In this document: piece by piece, positions 19,601 to 62,600 of the stretch
Layout: each line of letters starts with the position of its first letter
Numbering within the stretch: position 1 is the stretch's first letter
Assembly (NCBI GenBank): GCA_016186695.1
Contig: JACPLC010000005.1
Location: forward strand, 64,852-128,851
Direction of reading: 5' to 3'
DNA length: 64,000 nucleotides
Source of the DNA: Candidatus Kaiserbacteria bacterium
GTDB lineage: Bacteria; Patescibacteriota; Minisyncoccia; Phycocordibacterales; UBA2100
The notes under the pieces: model-generated
Told to the model about the DNA's origin: nothing
Databases searched by the model: none
What the model saw: the letters and a program-made list of their open reading frames with translations, nothing else
Position numbers and translations under genes: made by a program

Positions 19601-20326
19601 ATGCCGAGGCATTTCTTTTTCGACCTCGACAACACGCTCACACGGAGCAAATCGCACATCACTTCGGCACATGCCGAGATTCTCATGAGGCTGACTGAAC
19701 GTGCGGATGTGGTTGTCGTCTCCGGCCATCCGCAAAAAGACATCCGCGAGCATCTCGAGAAAGCTCTCGACGGCCGTTACTATATCCTCGCGCAAAACGG
19801 TAACTACGCGCAGATGCCCGATGGAAAAATCGTATGGGAGCGCCGGCTCTCTCCCCAACAGGTTGCAGCGATCCATGAGTTCACTACAAAAGCGCGCAAG
19901 CACCTTGCCTACAAAGTACGGGACGAGAACGACATCATCGAAGATCGCGGCTGTCAGGTTGCCTTTAGCTTCATCGGACACCACGAGAACCAAGACATCA
20001 AAGATGCCTTCGACCCAGACCATGCAAAAAGAAAAAAACTTCTCGAAGACTTGAGAGAAGACATCGAGCTTCTGCGCAAGAAACACAATATCCAAATACT
20101 GATAGCGGGAACGACTAATTTAGACATTATTGAAGCCGGAAAAACCAAAGGCTACAACATCACGGAGTTCATCAAAACCTTGGGCTGGAGGAAGGAGGAT
20201 TGTATATATATTGGCGATGCGCTCTTTCCGGGCGGCAATGACGAGACAGTGATTGGGATAATTCCGACTCGTCCTGTCAAAGATTACAAAGAAACATACG
20301 AGTATCTGCAATCGATTCTGAAATAA
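19601..20326 (+). CDS. HAD-superfamily hydrolase (IIB, PMM/Cof-like).
   Basis: FFDLDNTL motif I and a C-terminal GDALFPGGNDE. It is a paralog of the gene at 41852..42619. Confidence 0.65.
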   Translation: MPRHFFFDLDNTLTRSKSHITSAHAEILMRLTERADVVVVSGHPQKDIREHLEKALDGRYYILAQNGNYAQMPDGKIVWERRLSPQQVAAIHEFTTKARKHLAYKVRDENDIIEDRGCQVAFSFIGHHENQDIKDAFDPDHAKRKKLLEDLREDIELLRKKHNIQILIAGTTNLDIIEAGKTKGYNITEFIKTLGWRKEDCIYIGDALFPGGNDETVIGIIPTRPVKDYKETYEYLQSILK

Positions 20327-20327
20327 C

Positions 20328-21092
20328 ATGACGAACGCGCTCGAGATCAAAGACCTTAAGAAAACCTATAAGAGCGGCACTGTCGCGCTGAAAGGAGTTT
20401 CGCTCACCGTCCCCGTTGGAGATTTCTTCGCGCTCCTCGGGCCTAATGGCGCCGGGAAAACAACGATAATTGGCATCGTGACATCGCTCGTGAACAAAAC
20501 AAGCGGCACCGTGAAGGTCTTCGGGCACGACACCGACAAGGAATTCGAAAAGGCAAAAACGTTCATCGGTCTCGTCGGGCAGGAATTGAATTTCAATCCG
20601 TTTGAAAAACCACTCGACATCGTCACAAATCAGGCTGGTTATTACGGCATTCCGCGCTCGATTGCTTTGCCGCGCGCACACCAGCTTCTCACCGATCTCG
20701 GTCTTGGCGAAAAAATGACACAGCAGTCCATGCAGCTCTCCGGCGGCATGAAGCGCCGCCTTATGATAGCGCGCGCACTCATCCACGAGCCGCGCTTCCT
20801 CATCCTTGATGAGCCAACTGCCGGCGTTGACGTCGAACTTCGCCGCAGTATGTGGGACTACCTGCAGGGCATCACAAAAAAAGGTGTGACGATTCTTCTC
20901 ACCACACACTATCTCGAAGAAGCGGAACAGCTTGCGAGCCACGTCGCCATTATTAACAAAGGCGAAATTGCGGCGGCTGGAACTATGGCGGAGATACTCG
21001 CGCTTCACGACGAAGAAGAAGCTGGCAAGAGCGGCTACCGCGGCGGCAAACTCGAAGAGGTCTTTTTGCAGCTCACGCGGAACAGCGGTTAG
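20328..21092 (+). CDS. ABC transporter ATP-binding protein.
   Basis: Walker A LGPNGAGKTT, signature LSGGMKRRL, Walker B LILDEPTAGVD. Confidence 0.9.
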   Translation: MTNALEIKDLKKTYKSGTVALKGVSLTVPVGDFFALLGPNGAGKTTIIGIVTSLVNKTSGTVKVFGHDTDKEFEKAKTFIGLVGQELNFNPFEKPLDIVTNQAGYYGIPRSIALPRAHQLLTDLGLGEKMTQQSMQLSGGMKRRLMIARALIHEPRFLILDEPTAGVDVELRRSMWDYLQGITKKGVTILLTTHYLEEAEQLASHVAIINKGEIAAAGTMAEILALHDEEEAGKSGYRGGKLEEVFLQLTRNSG

Positions 21093-21117
21093 CGTTTAGC
21101 GAATAGCGTATAGAAAT

Positions 21118-21501
21118 ATGTATATACAATCATTCAGAAACCTCGTAGTCTGGCAAAAGGCACTTGAGCTCGCAAAAGAAATATACCGAGTCACAGACGA
21201 CCTCCCAAGTAAAGAGAGTTTCGGACTTCAGAGTCAGATGCGACGAGCTGCTGTTTCGATCCCGTCAAACATCGCGGAAGGTCACCGTCGTGGAACAAAG
21301 AAGGATTTCATACACTTCCTCCGTGTGTCTGACGGTTCCTCGGCAGAACTCGAGACGCAGATTCTGATATGCGAATCTAAATATCCGGACATTGATTTCA
21401 CGCGATCGAAAGCCCTGCTCGAGGAAGTTCAGAAAATGCTTGCATCGATGATTCGAAAGATTGATCTATCCTCTCAAACTAAACTAAACGCTACACGCTA
21501 A
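21118..21501 (+). CDS. Four-helix-bundle protein (TIGR02436, the 23S rRNA-intervening-sequence protein family).
   Basis: FRNLVVWQKALELAKEIYRVTDDLPSKESFGLQSQMRRAAVSIPSNIAEGHRR...FLRVSDGSSAELETQILI. Confidence 0.75.
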   Translation: MYIQSFRNLVVWQKALELAKEIYRVTDDLPSKESFGLQSQMRRAAVSIPSNIAEGHRRGTKKDFIHFLRVSDGSSAELETQILICESKYPDIDFTRSKALLEEVQKMLASMIRKIDLSSQTKLNATR

Positions 21502-21513
21502 TCGCCATACGCT

Positions 21514-22296
21514 ATGTCTCCCTACCAACTTTGGATTTCTTTCTACACGATGCTGCGCAAAGATATCGTGCGCATGTTCCGCATTTGGGTGCAAACATTT
21601 TTGCCGAGCGTGATGACCTCTGTTTTGTATTTCGCTGTTTTCGGCACAATTCTCGGATCCCGCATCGGGCAGATGCAGGGCGTGGACTACATGACGTTCG
21701 TCGTTCCCGGCCTCGTGATGCTCGCGATAGTGACAACCGCGTATGCCAACACTTCGTTCATGTTCTTCACCTCCAAATTTTTCGCGCGCTCGATCGACGA
21801 GATACTCGTCTCCCCCACTCCGCCATGGCTTCTTATCGGCGGATTTGTCGCGGGCGGTGTCGTGCGCGGCGTTTTGGTCGGCACGCTCGTTCTCATCGTT
21901 TCTCTCTTTTTCACTGGCCTTTCGCTCACCATCCACAACGCACTCGTCATCCTCGGATTTGCGATTCTCACCGCTCTCGTCTTTGCGCTTGCAGGACTCG
22001 TCAATGGCATCTATGCAAAATCAATCGATGGCATCAATCTTGTGCCAACCTTCGTGCTAACCCCCCTCGTCTATCTCGGTGGCATTTTCTATTCCGTGCA
22101 CACACTTCCGGAGTGGTGGCAGGCGATCACATATGCTGATCCTCTCTTCTACCTCGTAAACGGCCTCCGCTATGGCTTCCTCGGCATCACCGATATTCCA
22201 CTCACCCTTTCTCTGGGTGTTCTCCTCGTGATGATTGCTGGCCTCGCCACAATAAATTGGTACTTCATCCGAACCGGACTTGGGTTGAGACAGTAA
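21514..22296 (+). CDS. ABC-2 type transporter permease.
   Basis: 6 TM of the ABC-2 family; partner of the ATPase at 20328. Confidence 0.7.
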   Translation: MSPYQLWISFYTMLRKDIVRMFRIWVQTFLPSVMTSVLYFAVFGTILGSRIGQMQGVDYMTFVVPGLVMLAIVTTAYANTSFMFFTSKFFARSIDEILVSPTPPWLLIGGFVAGGVVRGVLVGTLVLIVSLFFTGLSLTIHNALVILGFAILTALVFALAGLVNGIYAKSIDGINLVPTFVLTPLVYLGGIFYSVHTLPEWWQAITYADPLFYLVNGLRYGFLGITDIPLTLSLGVLLVMIAGLATINWYFIRTGLGLRQ

Positions 22297-22359: not shown

Positions 22360-22649
22360 ATGCAAATGTATCTTGTGGCAGCCGCAGGAGTAGTCGTCGG
22401 TCTCGCAGGAGGCATCTTGTGGCAGCCGCAGGAGTAGTCGTCGGTCTCGCAGGAGGCTATGTATACGGCAACCAGGCGAACAAGGTCTCTGTTTGCCACG
22501 TGACTGGCTCCGAAAGTAATCCTGTGGAGCTCATCAGCATCTCCGGCAACGCGCTCAATGCGCACCTTGCCCACGACGATTTCATCCTTCCGCAGGGAGC
22601 AACCGACTGCTCGGACGGTGACGGATCTCCTACGGGCGGCGAGAACTAG
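22360..22649 (+). pseudogene. Small secreted/TM protein gene disrupted by a perfect 44-bp tandem duplication. The frame stops at TAG 22435. The downstream part restarts only at GTG 22419.
   Basis: Units 22370..22413 and 22414..22457 are identical. Removing one copy restores an 80-aa ORF, MQMYLVAAAGVVVGLAGGYVYGNQANKVSVCHVTGSES... Confidence 0.55.
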
Positions 22650-27299: not shown

Positions 27300-28100
27300 C
27301 TAGGTGAAATAACGCACTGCATTTCTAAATAGCTGAAGACCGGGACTCTCTTTTGGCATTGGCCTGTCATCGCGGACATATTCTTCTCGCAAAAGCGTCC
27401 AGTGCGGAAGCTGGGTGAAGCGCACGGCGCGCTCGGGATGCGGCATGAGCCCGAGCACTCTGCCACCGTAGCCGGTGATGCCTGCGATACCCTCGAGCGA
27501 GCCATTGGGGTTTGCCGGCATGTCGAAGTGCTTCGCCGTTTCTCCTTCCACATACTTCAGTGCAACCGCACCATCTTTCTTTAACTGTGCAAGCGTCTCT
27601 GGCTGCGCGAAATATTTTCCCTCACCATGTGCGATTGGGACGGAAAGCATTTTGATGCCCTTCAGCCATGGGCTGTCATTCTGCACTTCGAGATCCACCC
27701 AGCGGGCGTTGTAGCGCGCGATGCCTGCCCGTACTCCGTCTTGCGGAGGCGGGTCGTTTGCGACGAGAGCGCCGGGCAGGAATCCTGCGCTCGTGAGTAT
27801 CTGGAACCCGTTGCAAATGCCGGCCATCAAGGTGTCCCGCGCGAGAAACTTTTCGATTTCCTTGCCCAAATGATGCCTCACCTTATTGCCGTACGCCTTC
27901 CCCGCACCGGTGTGATCGCCGTACGCAAAGCCGCCGCCGAAGACAATGATTTGTGCTTTTTTCAAAATCGAGGGCTTTGCGATGACGTCGTTGAGATGCA
28001 CGATGTCCGCCGTCGCTCCGACCTGCTCGAACGCGGCTTTCGTTTCATCCTCTGTGTTGAGGCCGTATCCCGAGAAAATGATGACATGCGGTTTTACCAT
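27300..28100 (-). CDS. purQ: Phosphoribosylformylglycinamidine synthase, glutaminase subunit (PurQ).
   Basis: Class I GATase: VIIFSGYGLNTE...GGFAYGDH. Confidence 0.85.
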   Translation of the reverse strand: MVKPHVIIFSGYGLNTEDETKAAFEQVGATADIVHLNDVIAKPSILKKAQIIVFGGGFAYGDHTGAGKAYGNKVRHHLGKEIEKFLARDTLMAGICNGFQILTSAGFLPGALVANDPPPQDGVRAGIARYNARWVDLEVQNDSPWLKGIKMLSVPIAHGEGKYFAQPETLAQLKKDGAVALKYVEGETAKHFDMPANPNGSLEGIAGITGYGGRVLGLMPHPERAVRFTQLPHWTLLREEYVRDDRPMPKESPGLQLFRNAVRYFT

Positions 28101-31100
28101 AATTTGAAAAACGAGCGGTAGTTCTCAGTAAGAGCTGGAAGTGGAATCTCGACTTTTTCCTTCGGAAGTTCGATTGAAACTGACCATGCTTGCACGACTT
28201 CCCCTATCAGTGTCAAGGTGACACCTTGACATGCCTTCTCAAATTCATTTTGTGCACTGCGGCGCACCGAGAGAAGAATACGGCCCTGACTTTCTGAAAA
28301 GAGAATCGAGTCGGCGCGGCGGGCTTTGCCAGGAATGTTTGTGAGGTCGACATCAGCTCCGAGCTGTCCTGCGATCGAAGACTTTGCGAGCGCAACGGCA
28401 AGCCCGCCGCGGCCAACACCGAGCGCGGAAGCAATGAGACCTTTCTGAATCGCGTGAGAAACCGCATCGTATGCTTTCGCGTTCTTTTTCGCATCAACGA
28501 CCGGCACTTGTGGCAAGGTAAGACCTTGCCATTTCGCGTACTCGGAGCATCCCAACTCGTCGTTCGTTTCGCCGATGAGATAGACAAGATCCCCCACTCG
28601 TTTGAAATCGATGGTCATCGCTTTCGCGACATCGGGAATGACACCAATTGCCGAGATTAGGATCGTCGGAAGTGCGGCAATGTGTACTGGCTTTCCTTTC
28701 GCATCAAAGCCGCGGAAGTCGTTGAACATCGAGTCTTTGCCAGAGATAAAAGGTGTGCCGTATGCGGTTGCTACGTCATAACAGGCTTTCGCCGCCTGTT
28801 TCAATTCATACAAGCGCTCCGGCTTCTCGGAGGAAGACCAGCAGAAATTGTCGAGAATCGCGAGATAATCGCGCGAGGCGCCCGCGCAAATTGCATTGCG
28901 CACCGCGGTATCAATCGCCGCTGATGCCATCGCGTAGGTATCAATCTCGGAGTACCACGGCGCATAGCCTTGCGCGAGAACAATTCCACGCTCCGAATCA
29001 AAAAGTGGTTTAATCACAGCTGCATCGGCATTCACGCGCCCCTTCCCTTGCAGGGGCTTTGTCGCCGAATTTCCCTGCACCTCGTGGTCGTACTGCTGGG
29101 AAATAAATGAAATACTTCCGATGCTCGGACGTGAAAGTACATCGAGTATCGCTTTTTTCAGATCCATATTCTTTTTCTCCTCTTTATTCTTCCTTCCTAC
29201 TTCTTTCTTCTTACTTCTCTGAATTTGTACCGGACGTCCTTCATGTAGAAAATCCAGCGTCAGGTCCATCACTGTTTTCTTTACCCCGAGCGAGGTCGAG
29301 GGGCCGCCATAACGCACTACGACACGATCAGTATTTGTAAATTCCCCTATTCGCGTAGCTTCCACGTCGTGCCTGTCCATAATCTTTTTGAACGCCGCCC
29401 ACTTGCGCTTAGGCACAGCAAGCGTCATCCGCTCCTGCGATTCCGAAAGCCAAATCTGCCACGGTGAAAGTCCTGCGTATTTGAGCGGCACTTTTTCGAG
29501 ATCGACGATGCAGCCGCCGCTCTCGCGCGACATTTCCCCTACGGCTCCAGAAAGACCGCCTGCGCCGTTGTCGGTGATGGAGCTGTAAAGTCCGGCATCA
29601 CGCGCCTCGCGAATGAGCGCATCGGAGAGTTTCTTCTGCGTAATCGGATCGCCTATCTGCACGGCTGTCGCCGGAGAACCTTTTGAGAGCGCTTCCGATG
29701 AGAATGTCGCTCCGTGAATGCCGTCGAGTCCCACGCGCCCGCCTATCATCACGATGTAATCCCCCGCTTTCGCTCGTTTAAGGTCCGACCTTTGGGCGCT
29801 CTTAAGGTCGGACCTTGGTATGCGGCGGGGAATAAGACCGACCGTGCCGCCAAATACGAGCGGTTTGCCGCGATAGCTTGGATCGACAGCCACAAATCCC
29901 AGCGGCGTCGGTATCCCGCTCTGATTTCCTCCTTCGTTAATGCCCTGCACAACGCCTTCAAGAATGCGGCGCGCGGGCAAAAGCGGTTGGTTCTTTTCGC
30001 GATCGCGATAAAGCTCGCGCGCATCGTGCGGATCAGCGACGCAGAAACCGTATGTATTCGCAATGGGTTTCGCTCCCAAACCAAAACCAAGCGCATCACG
30101 GTTCACGCCGACGATAGCCGTGACCGAACCGCCAAAGGGATCGAGTGCCGAGGGTGCGTTGTGCGTTTCGACCTTGTGCGTAATGAGATACTTGTTGTCG
30201 AACGCGATCGCGCCCGAGTTGTCTTTAAACACGGAGACACAAAAATCTCCGACTTTTGTTTTATTCTTTCTTCTTTCTTCTTTCTTCTTCCTTCTGATCT
30301 CCTCTGTCGCACCTTTTATGTAGCGGTGGTAAATCCCCTCTTTCACTTCATCCAAAGGGTCGGCGAAAATCGTATGTTTGCAGTGCTCCGACCACGTTTG
30401 AGCCAGCGCTTCGAGCTCGACGTCGGTCGGGTTGCGCTTCTGCGTTCGAAAATGAGCGCGAATAACTTTCATTGCCCCGAGAGAAAGTGCGAGGGGCCCG
30501 CGCCTGCCCGCCGAAGCCTTGGCGGAGGCGGGACCGAGAATTCCCTCTCTGCTTATCTTCATCAATTCCGCGTCACTCACTTCCAAATTCACTGTGTCAG
30601 CCCTCGACGACTCGTGGAGCTTCACCTTCGGCACGACGACCGGAAATTTCCGGCCCGCCTCTGAAATGCTTGCACGCTCGACGAGCGGATTGTGCAGCTC
30701 GCGCACGAATTGTTCTACTTCGCTCTTTGATACATCGCCGGTGAAAAAAATAAAGCGGGATGAATAGACCGCCTCGCCGTCCCGAAACTTCCTTCCAATC
30801 GTATCTTCGATCGTTTCCTGCACCGTCGTCCCGAGATTGTCTGTCACTCCCGGCAGGTAGCCGATCTCTATCGCGTACGTGTAGTTTTTAGGCGCAAGAA
30901 CACTGTCCGTCGAAAATCTCTCTGTGATGGGGTTCGTAAGGCGCTCCGCTGCCCTCTGCAGTTCGCCCTGATCCAGTTTCGCGTCAACGGTATACGCGGC
31001 AGTCGTCGCGACAGCCGAAAGCCGGGTCTCGGGAAAGAGGCTTTTGAGCGTACGGAGGAGTTTCTGGGCGCGCGCGTCCTCTACCTTTGAGGAAATCGCG

Positions 31101-31132
31101 ATACGAGCCGTCATACCCCACCATACTAGCAT
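28094..31132 (-). CDS. purL: Phosphoribosylformylglycinamidine synthase PurL with a fused PurS-like N-terminal domain (1012 aa) and Lys/Glu-rich in-frame insertions.
   Basis: PurM-like AIRS domains throughout (HNAPSALDPFGGSVT, GRVGLDGIHGATFSS). The N-terminal 200 aa contain PurS-like EIGYLPGVTDNLGTTVQETIED. Confidence 0.9.
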   Translation of the reverse strand: MLVWWGMTARIAISSKVEDARAQKLLRTLKSLFPETRLSAVATTAAYTVDAKLDQGELQRAAERLTNPITERFSTDSVLAPKNYTYAIEIGYLPGVTDNLGTTVQETIEDTIGRKFRDGEAVYSSRFIFFTGDVSKSEVEQFVRELHNPLVERASISEAGRKFPVVVPKVKLHESSRADTVNLEVSDAELMKISREGILGPASAKASAGRRGPLALSLGAMKVIRAHFRTQKRNPTDVELEALAQTWSEHCKHTIFADPLDEVKEGIYHRYIKGATEEIRRKKKEERRKNKTKVGDFCVSVFKDNSGAIAFDNKYLITHKVETHNAPSALDPFGGSVTAIVGVNRDALGFGLGAKPIANTYGFCVADPHDARELYRDREKNQPLLPARRILEGVVQGINEGGNQSGIPTPLGFVAVDPSYRGKPLVFGGTVGLIPRRIPRSDLKSAQRSDLKRAKAGDYIVMIGGRVGLDGIHGATFSSEALSKGSPATAVQIGDPITQKKLSDALIREARDAGLYSSITDNGAGGLSGAVGEMSRESGGCIVDLEKVPLKYAGLSPWQIWLSESQERMTLAVPKRKWAAFKKIMDRHDVEATRIGEFTNTDRVVVRYGGPSTSLGVKKTVMDLTLDFLHEGRPVQIQRSKKKEVGRKNKEEKKNMDLKKAILDVLSRPSIGSISFISQQYDHEVQGNSATKPLQGKGRVNADAAVIKPLFDSERGIVLAQGYAPWYSEIDTYAMASAAIDTAVRNAICAGASRDYLAILDNFCWSSSEKPERLYELKQAAKACYDVATAYGTPFISGKDSMFNDFRGFDAKGKPVHIAALPTILISAIGVIPDVAKAMTIDFKRVGDLVYLIGETNDELGCSEYAKWQGLTLPQVPVVDAKKNAKAYDAVSHAIQKGLIASALGVGRGGLAVALAKSSIAGQLGADVDLTNIPGKARRADSILFSESQGRILLSVRRSAQNEFEKACQGVTLTLIGEVVQAWSVSIELPKEKVEIPLPALTENYRSFFKLW

Positions 31133-44312: not shown

Positions 44313-46502
44313 TTAGTCCGCTATGTATTCCCACACTGCATCGATGAACGTGTCTGCGTTCTCGGTCGGTGCCGACCACGCCAGCTTGAACCCGTACGGG
44401 CTTCCACCTGTACCCGGCACGATCGAGTAGCCGTTGACGAGAGCAATGTTGTCGCTGCTCTCTGCTGAGTAATAGATACAGACAACGCCCGCAGCGGAGG
44501 AACCGAGACCGGGACACAACGCCAAGTCAGCAGCTGACTCTTCCGAGTTCGGACCTGCGGCAATCACCTCGGCGTCGGTCAGATCTTTGTTGGCCGGAAT
44601 CTGGAGAGTCATGATCGTCCCGAAGTCTTGCCCGAATTCGCTTCCGGGAGGCAGCGGACCGGCGTGGGCATCCAGCCCGATACCGCCACGGATCGTCTCG
44701 CCTGACACGAGTGGCGTCAGCGCAGAGCGTCCAGCAGGACCGGGCGCACCTGTTGCACCCGTTGCCCCAGTTGGGCCAGCCGGACCAGTCTCGCCTTGGA
44801 CTCCTTGGATACCCTGTGCGCCAGTCGCTCCCGTTGCACCTTGCGGACCCGGGTCGCCCTGCACTCCCTGTGGTCCTTGTGCACCAGTCGCACCTTGAGG
44901 ACCTATTGGGCCTTGCGGACCTCGACAGTCGAGAGCATTAATCACCGAATCACCATTTACGTCTTCTGTGGAGAAGTCTTGAACTCCGTTGCCGTTGAGA
45001 TCCCAACAACTTAGCCCAGTAGGACCTTGGAGTCCTTGCGGACCCGTGAGGCCGGTTGGCCCGGTAGGGCCTGCCGGACCAGCAGGACCAGTTGCGCCCT
45101 GCGGACCTTCGGGGCCTGCCGGACCAGTTGGACCAGTATCACCCGTCGCGCCTGTTGGACCGATTGGTCCTGTGGGGCCTGCCGGACCAGCAGGACCAGT
45201 GTCTCCTTGTGCGCCTACAGCTCCTGTTTCTCCTTGCGCACCAGTTGCACCGGTTGCTCCTGTTTCTCCTTGCGCACCAGTTGCACCGGTCGCACCAGTC
45301 AACCCGACTGGACCTTGCGGACCCTCCGGACCTGCTGGACCGGTTGGGCCTTCTGGACCAGCTGGACCCATTGGACCAGTCTCGCCTGCCGGACCCGCGG
45401 GACCCATCGGACCATCGGCACCTTGTGGGCCTGCGGGACCTGTCTCACCAGTCAAGCCGATTGGGCCTTGAGGACCTGTTGGGCCAATCGCGCCTGTCTC
45501 GCCTGCTGGTCCTTGTGGACCCACCTCACCCTGCGGACCTGCAGGACCTTGTGGACCCTGAGCACCTTCAGCTCCAGGCTCTCCGGCTGCACCTTCGGCA
45601 CCCGGCGCACCTTCTGCTCCTGGTGCGCCATCACAAACGTAGCTCGTGGAAGTTATTTCTTCAGCGTCCAGTACGGCGTTGTTGTTTGCATCAATACCAG
45701 ACTCTACTTTTTGCCCACCAGCTGCGCAGTTCTCTCCTGCCGGCTCACTAGTCACAACAACCAATGCCTCCGAACCGTCTTCGCCATCTGTTCCATCTGT
45801 GCCGTTGACACCATCCGCGCCATCAACCCCATCACAGATATAACTTGTCGTAACCGGGCCTTCGCCCACGCTCGTTTCAACTTTCTTTCCACCTGCAAGG
45901 CAGTTCTCGCTCAGAGCGGGTTCGTCGGTCACGACAACGTTTGCAGATTCTCCGTCGGCACCTGCCGGACCTTGGGAGCCAACGTCACCCGGCGGACCTT
46001 GTGCACCATCTTCTCCGTCAGCACCCGCAGGACCAGTCGGACCTGGGTCACCCTGCGGACCCTGTTCACCCTGAGGCCCTTGTGTGCCGTCCTCACCATC
46101 GGCGCCGGAAGGACCCTGCGCGCCATCTTCTCCGTCAGCTCCCGTCGACCCAGTTGGCCCCGGATCACCTTGCGGACCTTGTGGGCCGGTTTCTCCTTGT
46201 GAGCCGGTTGCACCGGGCTCTCCCTGCGGACCCTGTTCTCCCTGAGGGCCTTGCGGACCTTGTTCTCCTCGAGGACCCTGAACGGATCTCCCGATCGATG
46301 CATTGACACCCCCTTCTCCTTCACCGCAGTTGAACCTGCTGAATGGCGAGCTGGTTGCATTACTGCCTATGCAAAAATCCAAGCGAAGTTGTGCATACGC
46401 TCTCGGAACAGAAACTCCGGCAAACAACATCAAACCAAACGCACTCGCGATCGTCAGCAAGACCAATTTCCTTTCCCTCACCACATGTAGAACACTGTTC
46501 AT
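44313..46502 (-). CDS. Secreted collagen-like (Gly-X-Y triple-helix repeat) protein with interspersed Cys-containing modules and a C-terminal globular domain.
   Basis: More than 150 GXY triplets ([14 protein letters not shown]...). Two roughly 40-aa non-collagen modules ([20 protein letters not shown]...YICDG). TTG start with an alternative ATG two codons upstream. Confidence 0.8.
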
Positions 46503-58898: not shown

Positions 58899-59570
58899 CT
58901 ATCGGCCGATGCGAACCACGGTGTGGTTCGCTACGTTCGTAGAGAACGAACTCGAAGAGGTCGTGCCGGAGGAAATGCTCCCCTGACTCACGGCCGAGCC
59001 GCCGTTCCCGCCGTTTCCGGCCGATGCGCCTCCGTTGTTGTCGGCGCCGCCGGTGCCGGAAACATCCCCGCCGTTTCCGCCAACGTATCCGTTTCCGCCG
59101 TTCCCTGCGCTTGCGCCTCCGTTGTTGCTAGTGCCGCCACCGAGCGATGCGACGTTGCCTCCGTCGCCAGCATTCCGTCCCGAGCCTCCGCTCCCCGCCG
59201 ATGAGCCGCCGTTGTTGCTTGAGCCGCCGCCGGAGCTGCTGACATCGCCTCCGTTGCCCGCATCATATCCATTGCCGCCATTCCCCGCCGATGAGCCGCC
59301 GTTGTTGCTCGAGCCGCCCGAAGCAGAGCTCGATCCGCCATTTCCGCCGACCTGCCCGCTTCCGCCACTGCCCGCAGAACTTCCTCCATTGTTCCCTGAA
59401 CCGAACGCGGAGAACAAGCTACTGCCCGAGGTGCGCTCAAGCCGTTCGCTCTGCACACGGATCATCGCCGCCTCGGCGAAGTACGGCAGTGTTATGAAAA
59501 CAACCGCAGAGACGAGCACCCCGATCGCAAGTCCGAGGACGGCAATTTCTTTCTTTTCCAGAAATTTCAT
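58899..59570 (-). CDS. Secreted Gly/Ser/Asn repeat protein (about 27-aa repeats SNNGGSSAGSGGSG.NGGNGG...), ending ...NHTVVRIGR.
   Basis: N-terminal TM, then about 6 repeats, then the C-terminal motif. Confidence 0.6.
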   Translation of the reverse strand: MKFLEKKEIAVLGLAIGVLVSAVVFITLPYFAEAAMIRVQSERLERTSGSSLFSAFGSGNNGGSSAGSGGSGQVGGNGGSSSASGGSSNNGGSSAGNGGNGYDAGNGGDVSSSGGGSSNNGGSSAGSGGSGRNAGDGGNVASLGGGTSNNGGASAGNGGNGYVGGNGGDVSGTGGADNNGGASAGNGGNGGSAVSQGSISSGTTSSSSFSTNVANHTVVRIGR

Positions 59571-59600
59571 ACGTGACGTTACTAATTAATAATTACTGGC

Positions 59601-62600
59601 CTAATTTCCAAAAAACCAGCCGCCGATAGTGCTTACGTTGAAACGGCCGGCGCCACGCGAGTTCGTACTGTCTTCCTTCTTTGGCTCCTTCTTGGCCGTC
59701 GGTTTAGGTTTCGCTGCAGCCGCAGGCTTCTTGGGAGCCGGAGTTGACACCGACTCGGGAGCTACAGCGACAGGCGCCTGCGCCGCAGCGACAGGTTCCG
59801 AAACAGGAGCTGCGCCGCCGCAGTAGACCGCATTGATCTTTTTCAGCGTCGAAGCGTACACACTGCCGGTGCCGCGTGTGAGTCCGAAGGGGGCGAGAAC
59901 CTCGCTCGTGTGTTTTTCCTGGAATGTGCTGACTGCTGCTGCCGTCAGCGCACCATAGAAGCCGGATATCGGAAGATTCGAGCCGACATCGAAGTTCAGA
60001 AATGCTTGCAGCTTTTTGACCTCAAGCGTATTCGTCGAACCACGGCGCAGGTATGTGGATAGAAGCGGGCTACATGCCGCTGCTGCTGCGGGAGGCGGCG
60101 TCGCTGCCGTTGCCGTTGAAGCCCCCAAGACTTTTCCTTCGGCAAAGGTCACGTCTCCCCACCCTTCTGCAGGCGGCATTTTGCTTACCATCGGCGCAAA
60201 TGTCGTTTCGTTGCGCTGACCCGTGATGCGTCCGACGTTACGATAGGTGCCGGGCTTGGTTTTGAGGGCATCGAATTCCACCGTGTAGGTAAGGGTTACC
60301 TGATCTCCGGCTTCAAGAGCGCCAAGTTTCCAGCTGCGCGTGCTAAGCGGCCTGTTCCAGGGGTCATAGAGAATATCGGAAAGAGTCGTGTGGTATGCAG
60401 GTCGGGCCCACTTGTCGTTCGTCACGACCACTTTGTAGTCGATAAGGATAGAAGAAGCTGTGGTGCTCGCCGAGAGTGTTGCACTCTTCGAAACTGTTAT
60501 TTTGGGATCGACATTGGGGTCTGCTGTGGAGATCCCCGGTGTCGATGTCGCAAAAACGAAGACAACAGGAACCGGGCCGCCGCTCGAAGAGCCGGCGGTT
60601 GTCGGAAGGCCTCCGCCTCCACCACCTCCGCCGCCCCCACCACCACCGCTCGAAGACCCTGAGCTTGTCGAAGGGCTACCACCGCCCCCGCCTCCGCCTC
60701 CGCCCCCGCCCGAGGAACTGGAACCAGAGGAATCCCCTCCGCCGCCGCCTCCACCAGAAGATCCTGAGGAAGATGAATCCCCTCCGCCGCCGCCACCGCC
60801 CGAGGAATTGGAATCCGAGGAACCGCCTCCTCCGCCGCTTCCACCAGAGGATGAATCGGTTGATCCTCCGGGAGAGCCCGAACCAGAGTCGCCACTGCCC
60901 GAGGAGCCTCCCTCACTTCCGGTATTTGAACTTGTGCCGATGACATTGACCGTCACGGTGCTCGTGTTGTCACTCTCATTTTGATCATGCTCCGCGCCCA
61001 CGACCCTCACGTTCATTGAAACGGGCACGGTTGCTCCTTGAGAGAGACCCAAAAGACGCACGGGGCCTTTTGCGGAGTATGCACGCGTCTCCCCTGGCAA
61101 AAGGGTCCCGAGATTCCATTTGATGCCTGTCTCCGTTTCAAGAGCACCGCTCGACACTTGCGAAAGAGAGAGCTGGCTCCTGTCGTACGTTGCGTGCAGG
61201 GCGACGTTGCTTGCGGCTTTGTCACCGTTATTCCGAACGGTGAACTGATACTGCACTTCTGAATTTGGCTGAGAGGTCGTCGGACTCACGCTCGCGGAGA
61301 CCGAGAGATCCGGATTACTGCCTCCGAAGTTAATGTTGCCGTTCCAGTCTCCGTAGATGTTGAAAATACCGAGGACCCAGTTTCGGTTCACGATGTTGGT
61401 GTTCACCATGTTGATGACGTTGGCCGTCGCGAACGCATCACCCGAGCGCACCGAAGCGATACCGTCCTCCACCGCACCTGTGTTATTACCCGTTTCCGCG
61501 ATGACCTCCACATCGGTCTGCACCTTTGCAAGGTTCGTCGATGAAGCGAGGAACGACGACGAGTTCAGGATGCCCGTCGAGCCCGAGGTGCGCTGTCTCG
61601 GGCCGGAAACGATCTCAAACCCGTAGTCCGTCTCGTGCGCCGTAAGTTCGCGCGGCAGGCCGACGACCGAACCGTTCCAATTACCCCACACGCGAAAGAT
61701 GAAATGCACAGAAGCTCCGCCCACCCTTGTTTGGTTCGCCGAGGTATAGCTCTTCGAAGAAGATCGCGCGAGGCCGGTTACCACCTCCCCGTGTCCGAGC
61801 GCAGTCGAGCTCGCCGTGTTGCCGCCGGTCACCGCGCGTGCGGTCGTCGTCCCGAAGAAGTCCTCGTCATTCGTATTGTCGACGACGAAGGAACTCGAGT
61901 TCATGGTCGGCAGTGAAGAGGTCCCGTTCAAAAGCGCGCCGAAGAATTTCTCGTCGGGAAGAACGATGTCTTCCTGCAGGTCGCCGAAGCTGCTCGCCGA
62001 AACGAGGAGGTAGCTCGAGTTGATGAAGTTGGTGTTCACGAGGTTCAAGACGTTGGCAGAGGCATACGCGCTCCCGGTATCGATCACGGCGTCCCCGGCA
62101 TCAGTCGAGGTCGCCGAGTTCGCGCCTGTCGTTGCACGTACCAATACTTTGTTCGTTACGGTTGCGGTGTTGTTGTTGAGAATATCCAAATCGGCGCTGT
62201 TGAGACACGTGAGAATCGTACAGCCGAGCTCTGTGGGGCTATTCCCCGGACCCTGCTCAGAGAAGTATGAAAGATCAAAATCCCGCAGATCCAGTCGATC
62301 TCCCGTCGAAGAATTGAGGAAGAGCACAAGTCCGTCGGAGTTGAAAAGGTTGGTATTCACGACGTTTGTGACCTCGGCAGTGGCTATCGCCTTGCCCGTG
62401 GCGATCAGCGCTGTGCCGCCGGTACCACCCGTAGCTTGGTTTTCCCCCGTAAACGCTCGGGCTTGTCCATCGGTCGTAAGCTCGGCATCGTTCGTGGCGG
62501 AAGAGGTGATGTGAGAGCTGTTTGTTTTCCCCGGCGCGTCTACGTTCGTGCGTGTGATGTTCAAGACGTTGTGAACCGTCGTCGTTGCCGTCGCATCTCC

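Follow-up and report, generated by a model that had tools for sequence, protein, structure and literature searches.

In the 64,000-nucleotide stretch of Candidatus Kaiserbacteria DNA analysed here (contig JACPLC010000005.1, positions 64,852 to 128,851; hereafter the window), the two genes of an ATP-binding cassette (ABC) transporter are separated by a small gene for a four-helix-bundle protein flanked by inverted repeats, and the locus raises the question of how this gene came to lie there and what its repeat borders are. The gene for the ABC transporter ATP-binding protein (20328..21092, + strand; PF00005, E 1.6e-29; DrrA-like), the four-helix-bundle gene (21118..21501, + strand) and the gene for the partner of the ATPase, an ABC-2 type permease (21514..22296, + strand; PF01061, E 3.6e-34; NF011648, 325 bits against a cut-off of 225), are read head to tail on the same strand, and this order, as well as the arrays on both sides of the middle gene, was found as given in a preliminary description of this DNA. 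The middle open-reading frame (ORF) encodes 127 amino acids and belongs to PF05635 (E 3.4e-35, 120.9 bits, cut-off 33.8) and TIGR02436 (E 1e-35, 122.2 bits, cut-off 24), a family for which a single search returned ~7,900 relatives at E ≤ 1e-10 among 8,000 scored candidates. On balance, we are inclined to read the feature as a PF05635 cassette of the intervening-sequence (IVS) type with two inverted arrays of TAG-bearing heptads, inserted at the ABC stop/start junction and carried as a passenger of the operon. What the feature is, an inserted IVS-type cassette whose borders are part of it, is well supported; its mechanism, set out below, we infer.

Cassette-bearing and empty operons

Orthologous operons were collected in a metagenome scan with the permease as the query, which gave 80 operons. 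Both genes were complete in 67 operons, comprising 63 from the metagenome scan, three from a genome scan, and the window itself. In 48 of these 67, the majority, the ATPase and permease genes lie a few bases apart with nothing inserted between them, and these include the nearest relatives of the window (L083, L084, and L087), with 90.8% identity in the ATPase and 89-91% in the permease. The empty junction is stereotyped, reading ...ACCAAAGAAAAA-TGA-T-ATG with TAG or TAA as variants, that is, a stop codon, a T, and the ATG, and the ATPase of the insert-free operons ends in ..(K/S)EK. Nucleotide homology between the window and the empty operons breaks off at 21076 and restarts at ~21511, with ~435 nt in the window standing where the empty operon L083 has ~13 nt (CAAAGAAAAATGA); nucleotide alignment with the insert-free operons L083, L087, and L127 places the inserted segment at 21077..21513 of the + strand. 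The window ATPase ends in ..LTRNSG-stop, and the final five codons, R-N-S-G-stop (21078-21092), have no homology to the ..KEK-stop of the empty operons. As homology breaks off at 21076, the C-terminus of the window ATPase derives from the left array, up to its first TAG in frame. By sequence comparison, the cassette is thus shown to be an insertion in the ABC operon, and the earlier proposal that the gene is an insertional passenger is borne out by the empty operons that it had suggested for comparison.

The four-helix-bundle gene occupies the same junction in eight operons (the window, L001-L004, L135, L155, and L156), all of them with heptad borders; relatives with the same three genes and no repeat borders, which the preliminary description would have taken as a sign of an old operon, are absent from this set. 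In the tree of the ABC proteins, operons with and without a cassette are interspersed, and in the tree of the four-helix-bundle proteins the junction cassettes fall into two separate clades, one with TAGCG heptads (window, L001-L004, and L156) and one with TAGTT/CTAACAA heptads (L135 and L155), indicating that at least two cassette lineages occupied the same junction. The gene might instead be an old, fixed member of the operon, for example one encoding a regulator or an accessory subunit, in which case the repeats would be intergenic signals of an ordinary kind. The shared gene order in L001-L004, L135, L155, and L156, the purifying selection on the protein described below, and the fact that the four-helix-bundle proteins have diverged about as much as the ABC proteins would all be in keeping. 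We regard this as very improbable, given that most orthologous operons, down to those at ~91% identity, do without the gene, that relatives with the same kind of border are found at a putative ssb-rpsR junction, beside the RNase H-like gene of L077, between cas10 and cmr3, and between cas6 and cas4, and that other lineages carry unrelated inserts at the ABC junction.

Heptad arrays as borders of the family

The left array of the window (21083..21117, + strand) consists of the five units CAGCGGT, TAGCGTT, TAGCGAA, TAGCGTA, and TAGAAAT, which start at 21083, 21090, 21097, 21104, and 21111 and run up to the ATG of the four-helix-bundle gene at 21118. The right array (21484..21514, + strand) likewise has five units, CTAAACG, CTACACG, CTAATCG, and CCATACG, starting at 21484, 21491, 21498, and 21505, and a final CTA at 21512-21514. 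Both keep a strict period of 7, are inverted complements of one another, and are called by TRF as period-7 arrays. They interlock with all three genes. The ATPase stop codon is the first exact TAG of the left array (21090-21092), the TAA stop of the four-helix-bundle gene (21499-21501) falls within the right array, and the permease ATG shares its A with the last CTA (CTATG). Residues ~116-127 of the four-helix-bundle protein are encoded by the right array, in agreement with the earlier statement that this border also forms the C-terminus, and the three exact-period TAGs of the left array close all three frames of the + strand.

The borders had been described as inverted arrays of a TAGCG pentamer. 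The inverted arrays are real, but what is conserved in them is a heptad in which TAG is invariant, and not the pentamer as such. Exact TAGCG occurs in the arrays at 21090, 21097, and 21104 on the + strand and at 21489, 21496, and 21510 on the - strand, while the remaining 79 of the 85 TAGCG sites in the window are scattered and form no second cluster. Scanning the window for (TAGCGnn)x4 gave 17-19 of 20 at the two arrays only, with 15 as the next best score, and TAGNNNNTAGNNNNTAG (TAGN4TAGN4TAG) has three matches in the 64 kb, all in the arrays, against 0.03 expected from shuffled sequences. A chance origin of the window arrays is excluded. No further TAG-heptad array was found in the window by TAGCG sites, heptad scan, or motif count, so that the random recurrence which would have spoken against a link with the gene is absent there, and phmmer against the six-frame ORFs of the window found no second four-helix-bundle gene. 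Two period-7 pyrimidine-rich runs of the + strand (29187-29218 and 30260-30295) lie outside the TAG-array type. They were considered as further cassette arrays and rejected, as they encode K/E-rich segments (..RRKKKEERRKNKTK.., ..KKKEVGRKNKEEKKN..) of a putative PurL-like protein of 1012 amino acids, the gene of which lies on the - strand at 28094-31132.

Close homologues were aligned and used as the query against one genome per GTDB species, giving 80 loci, almost all from bacteria of the candidate phyla radiation (CPR). Most loci share a common design, with (TAGxxnn)n upstream and (nnxxCTA)n downstream of the gene. At least three TAGs at exact period 7 stand upstream in 28 of 75 loci, compared to 6 of 1500 random segments, and at least three CTAs at exact period 7 stand downstream in 36 of 75, compared to 7 of 1500; the opposite orientation of the arrays is essentially absent from the 75 loci. 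Autocorrelation at lag 7 is 0.62 and 0.66 in the two flanks and 0.34 at other lags and in controls. The arms of a locus are complementary to each other in 58 of 74 loci, whereas only 4 of 296 random pairs of equal spacing are. The consensus heptad has TAG on the inward-reading strand in 90 of 114 arrays; of the 24 others, 12 carry TAA or TGA, which lends weak support to the use of other stop codons. Heptad positions 1-3 are TAG by construction, since units were anchored on it; positions 4-5 are retained across an array and are common to both arms of a locus (0.83/0.74) while differing between loci (0.47/0.45), and position 6 is free. Arrays are 3-5 units long, with left arrays reaching five units at most (mode 4), and the array of L003 is one unit longer than that of L004.

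Period-7 borders built of other units were also present in metagenome-assembled genomes (MAGs) of a Bacteroidota bacterium (L076) and a Eubacterium (L072). In cultured cyanobacteria, a four-helix-bundle gene lies between cas10/cmr2 and cmr3 on a plasmid of Picosynechococcus sp. PCC 7003 (L162:1201-1557) and between cas6 and cas4 on pANA02 of Anabaena sp. 90 (L163:1201-1569), with inverted borders of GGAGATAA at period 8 in the former and GGTGACA / TGTCACC at period 7 in the latter. This suggests that the reported association of the PF05635 family with cas loci reflects passenger insertion. Relatives with the same borders as the window cassette were found in unrelated contexts, one being a putative ssb-rpsR junction and another a position upstream of the RNase H-like gene of L077. 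The former is a second recurrent site, at about position 3000 of L055, L057, L058, L059, L060, and L069 and also of L043, L047, and L062, where the cassette stands between a gene ending in ..(D/E)IPF-stop, read as the tail of SSB, and a gene starting with MKQDYFSSNN, read as rpsR; there as well, the host stop often coincides with the first TAG of the array. Among the loci fetched, no convincing case of a relative embedded in rRNA was seen, only isolated single-motif matches.

Both the protein and its borders are under selection. In the TAGCG lineage, the ratio of nonsynonymous to synonymous substitution rates (dN/dS) of the four-helix-bundle gene is 0.04-0.07 with dS > 1, showing strong purifying selection and, therefore, a functional protein. 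Between the window and L003, only two of the 35 positions of the left array differ (94% identical, spacers included), while the proteins are 69% identical and the synonymous sites of the adjoining ORF are saturated (proportion of differing synonymous sites, pS, ~0.8). Since the array was kept while synonymous sites became saturated, its sequence is under purifying selection in the TAGCG lineage. Neutral simple-sequence repeats that arose by polymerase slippage, and whose place beside the gene is owed to no more than accident or common descent, could differ in unit number between close relatives, as L003 and L004 do, and an over-representation of heptamers in bacteria is documented (PMC4692102). 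Adjacent units of the arrays differ at their spacers, unlike the products of fresh slippage, and the 94% identity across lineages with saturated synonymous sites, the strictly inverted orientation with TAG facing inward at most loci, and the upper limit of ~5 units also argue against slippage, which we consider highly unlikely. The arrays belong to the cassette and are a hallmark of the family that is conserved under selection. Copies within one MAG are ~55-60% identical, and such paralogues within one genome are old.

Arms, reading frames, and the encoded protein

The window cassette resembles a known element in most of its parts. The IVS of Coxiella burnetii is a 428-nt insertion in helix 45 of the 23S rRNA with an S23p ORF, a 28-bp terminal stem that is cut by RNase III, and three tandem heptamers, GACAGAT, with a degenerate fourth, directly upstream of the ATG; its ORF was considered by its authors to be decaying and probably untranslated (PMC4990558). 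Leptospira IVSs with an S23p ORF in 23S rRNA are cited in the same work (PMC4990558), and other reports place PF05635 ORFs within insertions of 16S and 23S rRNA in CPR bacteria and, as guests, within cas operons. The Coxiella element and the window cassette share a PF05635 ORF, a similar length (428 nt and ~435 nt), terminal inverted repeats with a stem of ~24-28 bp, which in the window is predicted and interrupted, and tandem heptamers right before the start of the ORF, four to five of them in the window, where they end at the ATG. They differ in setting, 23S rRNA helix 45 in one case and an mRNA operon junction between two protein genes in the other, in the heptad (GACAGAT and TAGCGnn), and in the state of the ORF, which is reportedly decaying in Coxiella and is under strong purifying selection in the window. 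RNase III cleavage was demonstrated for Coxiella, whereas the window cassette offers a putative RNase III site by analogy.

The arms of the window cassette are predicted to pair. Minimum free energy and centroid structures of 21075-21530 bring the left and right arrays together (z -2.3), and a terminal stem with 24 pairs is predicted by RNAalifold from six TAGCG cassettes, its blocks of 3-7 bp being separated by small internal loops and its base adjoining the permease AUG. The cassettes are also packed tightly between their neighbours and co-oriented with them. The gene upstream runs in the same direction at 61 of 66 loci, and the gene downstream does so at 47 of 58; at 31 of 61 loci, a distance of 28-39 nt, equal to one array length, separates the upstream stop from the four-helix-bundle ATG, and the first TAG often doubles as the host stop codon. 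An overlap of the downstream ATG with the last CTA (CTATG) recurs in the ABC operons, at the putative ssb-rpsR junction, and in the cassette upstream of the RNase H-like gene. Within 30 nt of the four-helix-bundle ATG, TAG closes each of the three frames at 28% of loci, compared to 1% of control genes. A role of TTAG units in closing frames of the opposite strand through CTAA was also considered and rejected, as there is no enrichment (12% vs 8%).

The window cassette is part of a run of four near-spacerless + strand genes that begins with a gene for a HAD-type hydrolase (19601-20326), and no promoter-like or terminator-like site was found on the + strand between 19400 and 22700. In the mechanism that we propose, read-through of the host operon would transcribe the cassette, and in the RNA a stem of ~24 bp, with interruptions, would form between the arms and place the ATPase stop beside the permease AUG at its base. 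Such a stem would have the architecture of the terminal stem of rRNA IVSs, where RNase III cuts, and would be a candidate RNase III site here. The period-7 TAG would supply a stop in all three frames, so that any host frame entering the cassette would be closed at once, as the ATPase ORF of the window is on the first TAG. Since the cassette has its own stop within the right arm, 12 nt upstream of the permease ATG, a relay of translation from the ATPase to the four-helix-bundle gene and on to the permease would be possible.

A number of observations weigh against this account of an operon passenger with paired arms and closed frames. The predicted pairing is made of 5-bp blocks with 2x2 mismatches, for which several registers are possible, and spacers of the two arms show no in-register covariation (0.68 observed, 0.68 permuted). 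The precise helix is therefore not what is conserved, and a precise helix was rejected as an explanation of the arrays on the same figures; unit types are common to both arms without strict order, and what is conserved is a periodic motif. Closure of the three frames within 30 nt is found in only 41% of loci, and arrays with no stop codon at all exist, for example in L065, L027, and L072. A stem alone would leave the invariant TAG unexplained, and frame closure alone would leave unexplained why positions 4-5 are kept and shared by the arms. Cutting an mRNA between two partner genes by RNase III could be costly. As regards mobility, there is no sign of current movement: copies within a genome are as highly diverged as noted above, identical copies are confined to the same operon, no transposase was found with the cassette, and no relatives were found in viral contigs.

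The same observations bear on the kind of element involved. No recent movement was seen, identical proteins all being in the same operon, and no clear target-site duplication was apparent, the outermost TAG and CTA coinciding with host stop and start codons. Of the features of a transposable element, either an insertion sequence or a miniature inverted-repeat transposable element (MITE), neither a transposase gene nor several near-identical copies in a genome were found, and the window has no second copy. The cassette is like MITEs and other small non-autonomous elements in its size, its terminal inverted repeats, and its presence/absence polymorphism at a defined site, and unlike them in its conserved non-transposase gene, the lack of a visible target-site duplication, and its old, diverged copies. 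That the IVS-type cassette has been mobile we infer from its patchy distribution alone.

The invariant TAG and the shared positions 4-5 may instead be explained by the protein. The arrays could be periodic binding sites for the cassette's own putative pentamer, with one UAG or TAG per subunit at 7-nt spacing, the protein wrapping single-stranded RNA or DNA in the manner of HutP on (UAG-N4)x3 or of TRAP, a ring oligomer that reads GAG/UAG repeats. An array upstream of its own AUG could then serve translational autoregulation, or binding could open or close the stem or mark the ends for recombination. An AlphaFold2 monomer model of the window protein has four helices with a confidence score (pLDDT) of 92, the last ~12 residues, which are encoded by the right array, being less confident. 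Its top Foldseek matches are XCC0516 (2GSC; template-modelling (TM) score 0.83-0.92), BT_0352 (2RLD; ~0.7-0.8), and the more distant bAvd (0.72/0.83); XCC0516 and BT_0352 are four-helix-bundle proteins solved by structural genomics and homologues of the window protein in sequence as well (E 1.9e-19 and 4e-4). The entries 2GSC and 2RLD, its nearest relatives of solved structure, have five chains each, and the model superposes on both and on the pentameric bAvd. The protein is basic (pI 9.3) and under strong purifying selection, and the arrays have 3-5 units, with left arrays of at most five and a mode of 4. An invariant TAG with a free position 6 and with positions 4-5 that are specific to the cassette and identical on both arms fits a recognised motif rather than a helix.

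For such sites HutP, likewise a ring oligomer, is a precedent, its target being three UAGs with 4-nt spacers and thus a period of 7 (PMC2425495), which is the exact layout of the left array as RNA; at least three UAGs with 4-nt spacers are present at 21090-21113. The folds of HutP and TRAP are unrelated to that of the window protein, and HutP sites are direct repeats on one RNA, while the second array of the window is an inverted complement. The right arm reads CUA on the transcript, and a single RNA specificity would not fit both arms unless the target were DNA or the 5′ arm of each strand. Proteins that are 60-70% identical adjoin pentamers that differ, and distant clades can share one pentamer, so co-variation of protein and repeat is not demonstrated. 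We think of binding sites for the protein as the main rival explanation of the arrays, a strong one though less likely; they are compatible with the inserted passenger cassette and may be the missing half of that explanation.

The likeness to bAvd raises the further possibility that the gene is the Avd of a diversity-generating retroelement (DGR). bAvd (4DWL, 8UBE) is the pentameric RNA-binding scaffold of the DGR ribonucleoprotein, and it shares with the window protein its fold and basic character; the sequence also matches the bAvd-like PF22296 (24.6 bits, cut-off 40) and NF033474, the Avd of DGRs (20 bits, cut-off 80), both weakly and below the cut-off. Identity to bAvd is 11-13%, and neither a reverse transcriptase nor a pair of template/variable repeats was seen nearby, the genes within ~12 kb being those of the ABC operon, of purine biosynthesis, and of other housekeeping functions. 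An Avd is the least likely of the readings, with hardly any probability left to it.

Heptamer arrays are also known apart from this family. GGGAATC in Xanthomonas, often in convergent inverted pairs, and GGGGAYT in Nostoc form such arrays, and heptamer repeats are over-represented in bacteria (PMC4692102). These arrays share with the borders of the window cassette the period of 7, the intergenic position, and, in Xanthomonas, often the convergent inverted arrangement; they differ in length, which can be as much as 14 to 26 units, in being G-rich, and in having no stop codon, and they are not linked to PF05635 genes in that report (PMC4692102). In the literature searched, no general link of PF05635 genes to flanking heptad arrays was found, an absence there not proving novelty. 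The window cassette is of the known IVS type but set in an mRNA operon, and its (TAG-N4)n borders, which are selected and common to the family, were absent from the literature searched.

These borders allow the element to be defined at the sequence level, as a cassette with inverted period-7 arrays that bear TAG and are under selection, placed just where the stop codon of one gene meets the start codon of the next. Structures of family members have been solved, and the family has repeatedly been reported as a puzzling guest of rRNA genes and CRISPR-cas operons, and the present results warn against taking PF05635 genes for functional partners of a host operon, be it for an ABC transporter or for Cas proteins. 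The borders may also be connected with the so far unexplained excess of heptamer repeats in bacteria. More tentatively still than the binding sites themselves, and with the odds against it, we suggest that the PF05635 gene and its inverted (TAG-N4)n arrays may form a self-contained unit, a pentameric nucleic-acid-binding protein with its own sites of about five units. If so, there would be a distinct class of operon-junction cassette across CPR bacteria, cyanobacteria (cas operons included), and rRNA genes, which would account for the 'intervening sequence protein' family and for part of the bacterial heptamer excess, and in which the protein would read the heptads to control the pairing, processing, or translation of the host transcript, or the movement of the cassette.

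Other inserts at the junction and other repeats

Inserts of several other kinds were found at the same ATPase/permease junction. The first, ~120 nt long, has the conserved ends AGCGAGCG ... CGAGCGAAC and a predicted three-way-junction fold, and lies at L089:735-863, L092:2380-2503, L110:2035-2162, L118:2380-2503, L123:2380-2503, and L129:1700-1826; L119 has an equal junction gap of 160 nt and presumably the same insert. RNAalifold gives 38 pairs for it, 23 of them with compensatory double changes, and it has no match in Rfam 15 at E ≤ 0.1. From the predicted fold, it is a candidate for an unnamed structured RNA or a structured insert. Miniature inserts without an ORF (L088:2354-2501 and L091:1138-1278) consist of inverted heptad arrays, CTAAATT.../...ATTTAGA and TTTGCAA.../...TTGCAAA, around a loop of 40-85 nt with the possible coding sequence of a very short peptide. 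The arms of L088 are swapped relative to the four-helix-bundle cassettes, with CTA on the left and TAG on the right. Junction inserts of 110-170 nt were also considered as degraded four-helix-bundle cassettes, a view that was dropped because the best protein match, of 16 residues at E 0.003, is unconvincing.

A ~210-amino-acid ORF (MARLEDI... / MRRIEQI...) with no family assigned occupies the junction at L101:181-833, L107:1093-1755, L109:1839-2501, and L147:1837-2501, its start, TAATATG / TAGTATG, being the permease start of the empty operons. In L114 and L159, the ABC junction holds yet another insert, a hairpin of ~110 nt. The ATPase/permease junction is a hot spot of insertion, with quite different inserts in other lineages, and is clearly either permissive or targeted.

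Scans of the 64-kb window with Rfam, including its rRNA families, and for tRNA gave zero matches. The window also contains repeats of other types. Just downstream of the permease gene, at 22370-22457, there is a perfect tandem duplication of 44 bp (2.0 copies, 100% match) at the start of a small ORF that encodes a hydrophobic N-terminus. It puts the first copy in another frame, 44 not being divisible by 3, and is either a recent duplication or an artefact of assembly. Long coding-type repeats of 9, 18, 36, 45, 63, and 90 nt, for example GCACCAGTT, extend over 45220-46073 and 59115-60851, which suggests that collagen-like or other repetitive surface proteins may be encoded there on the - strand.

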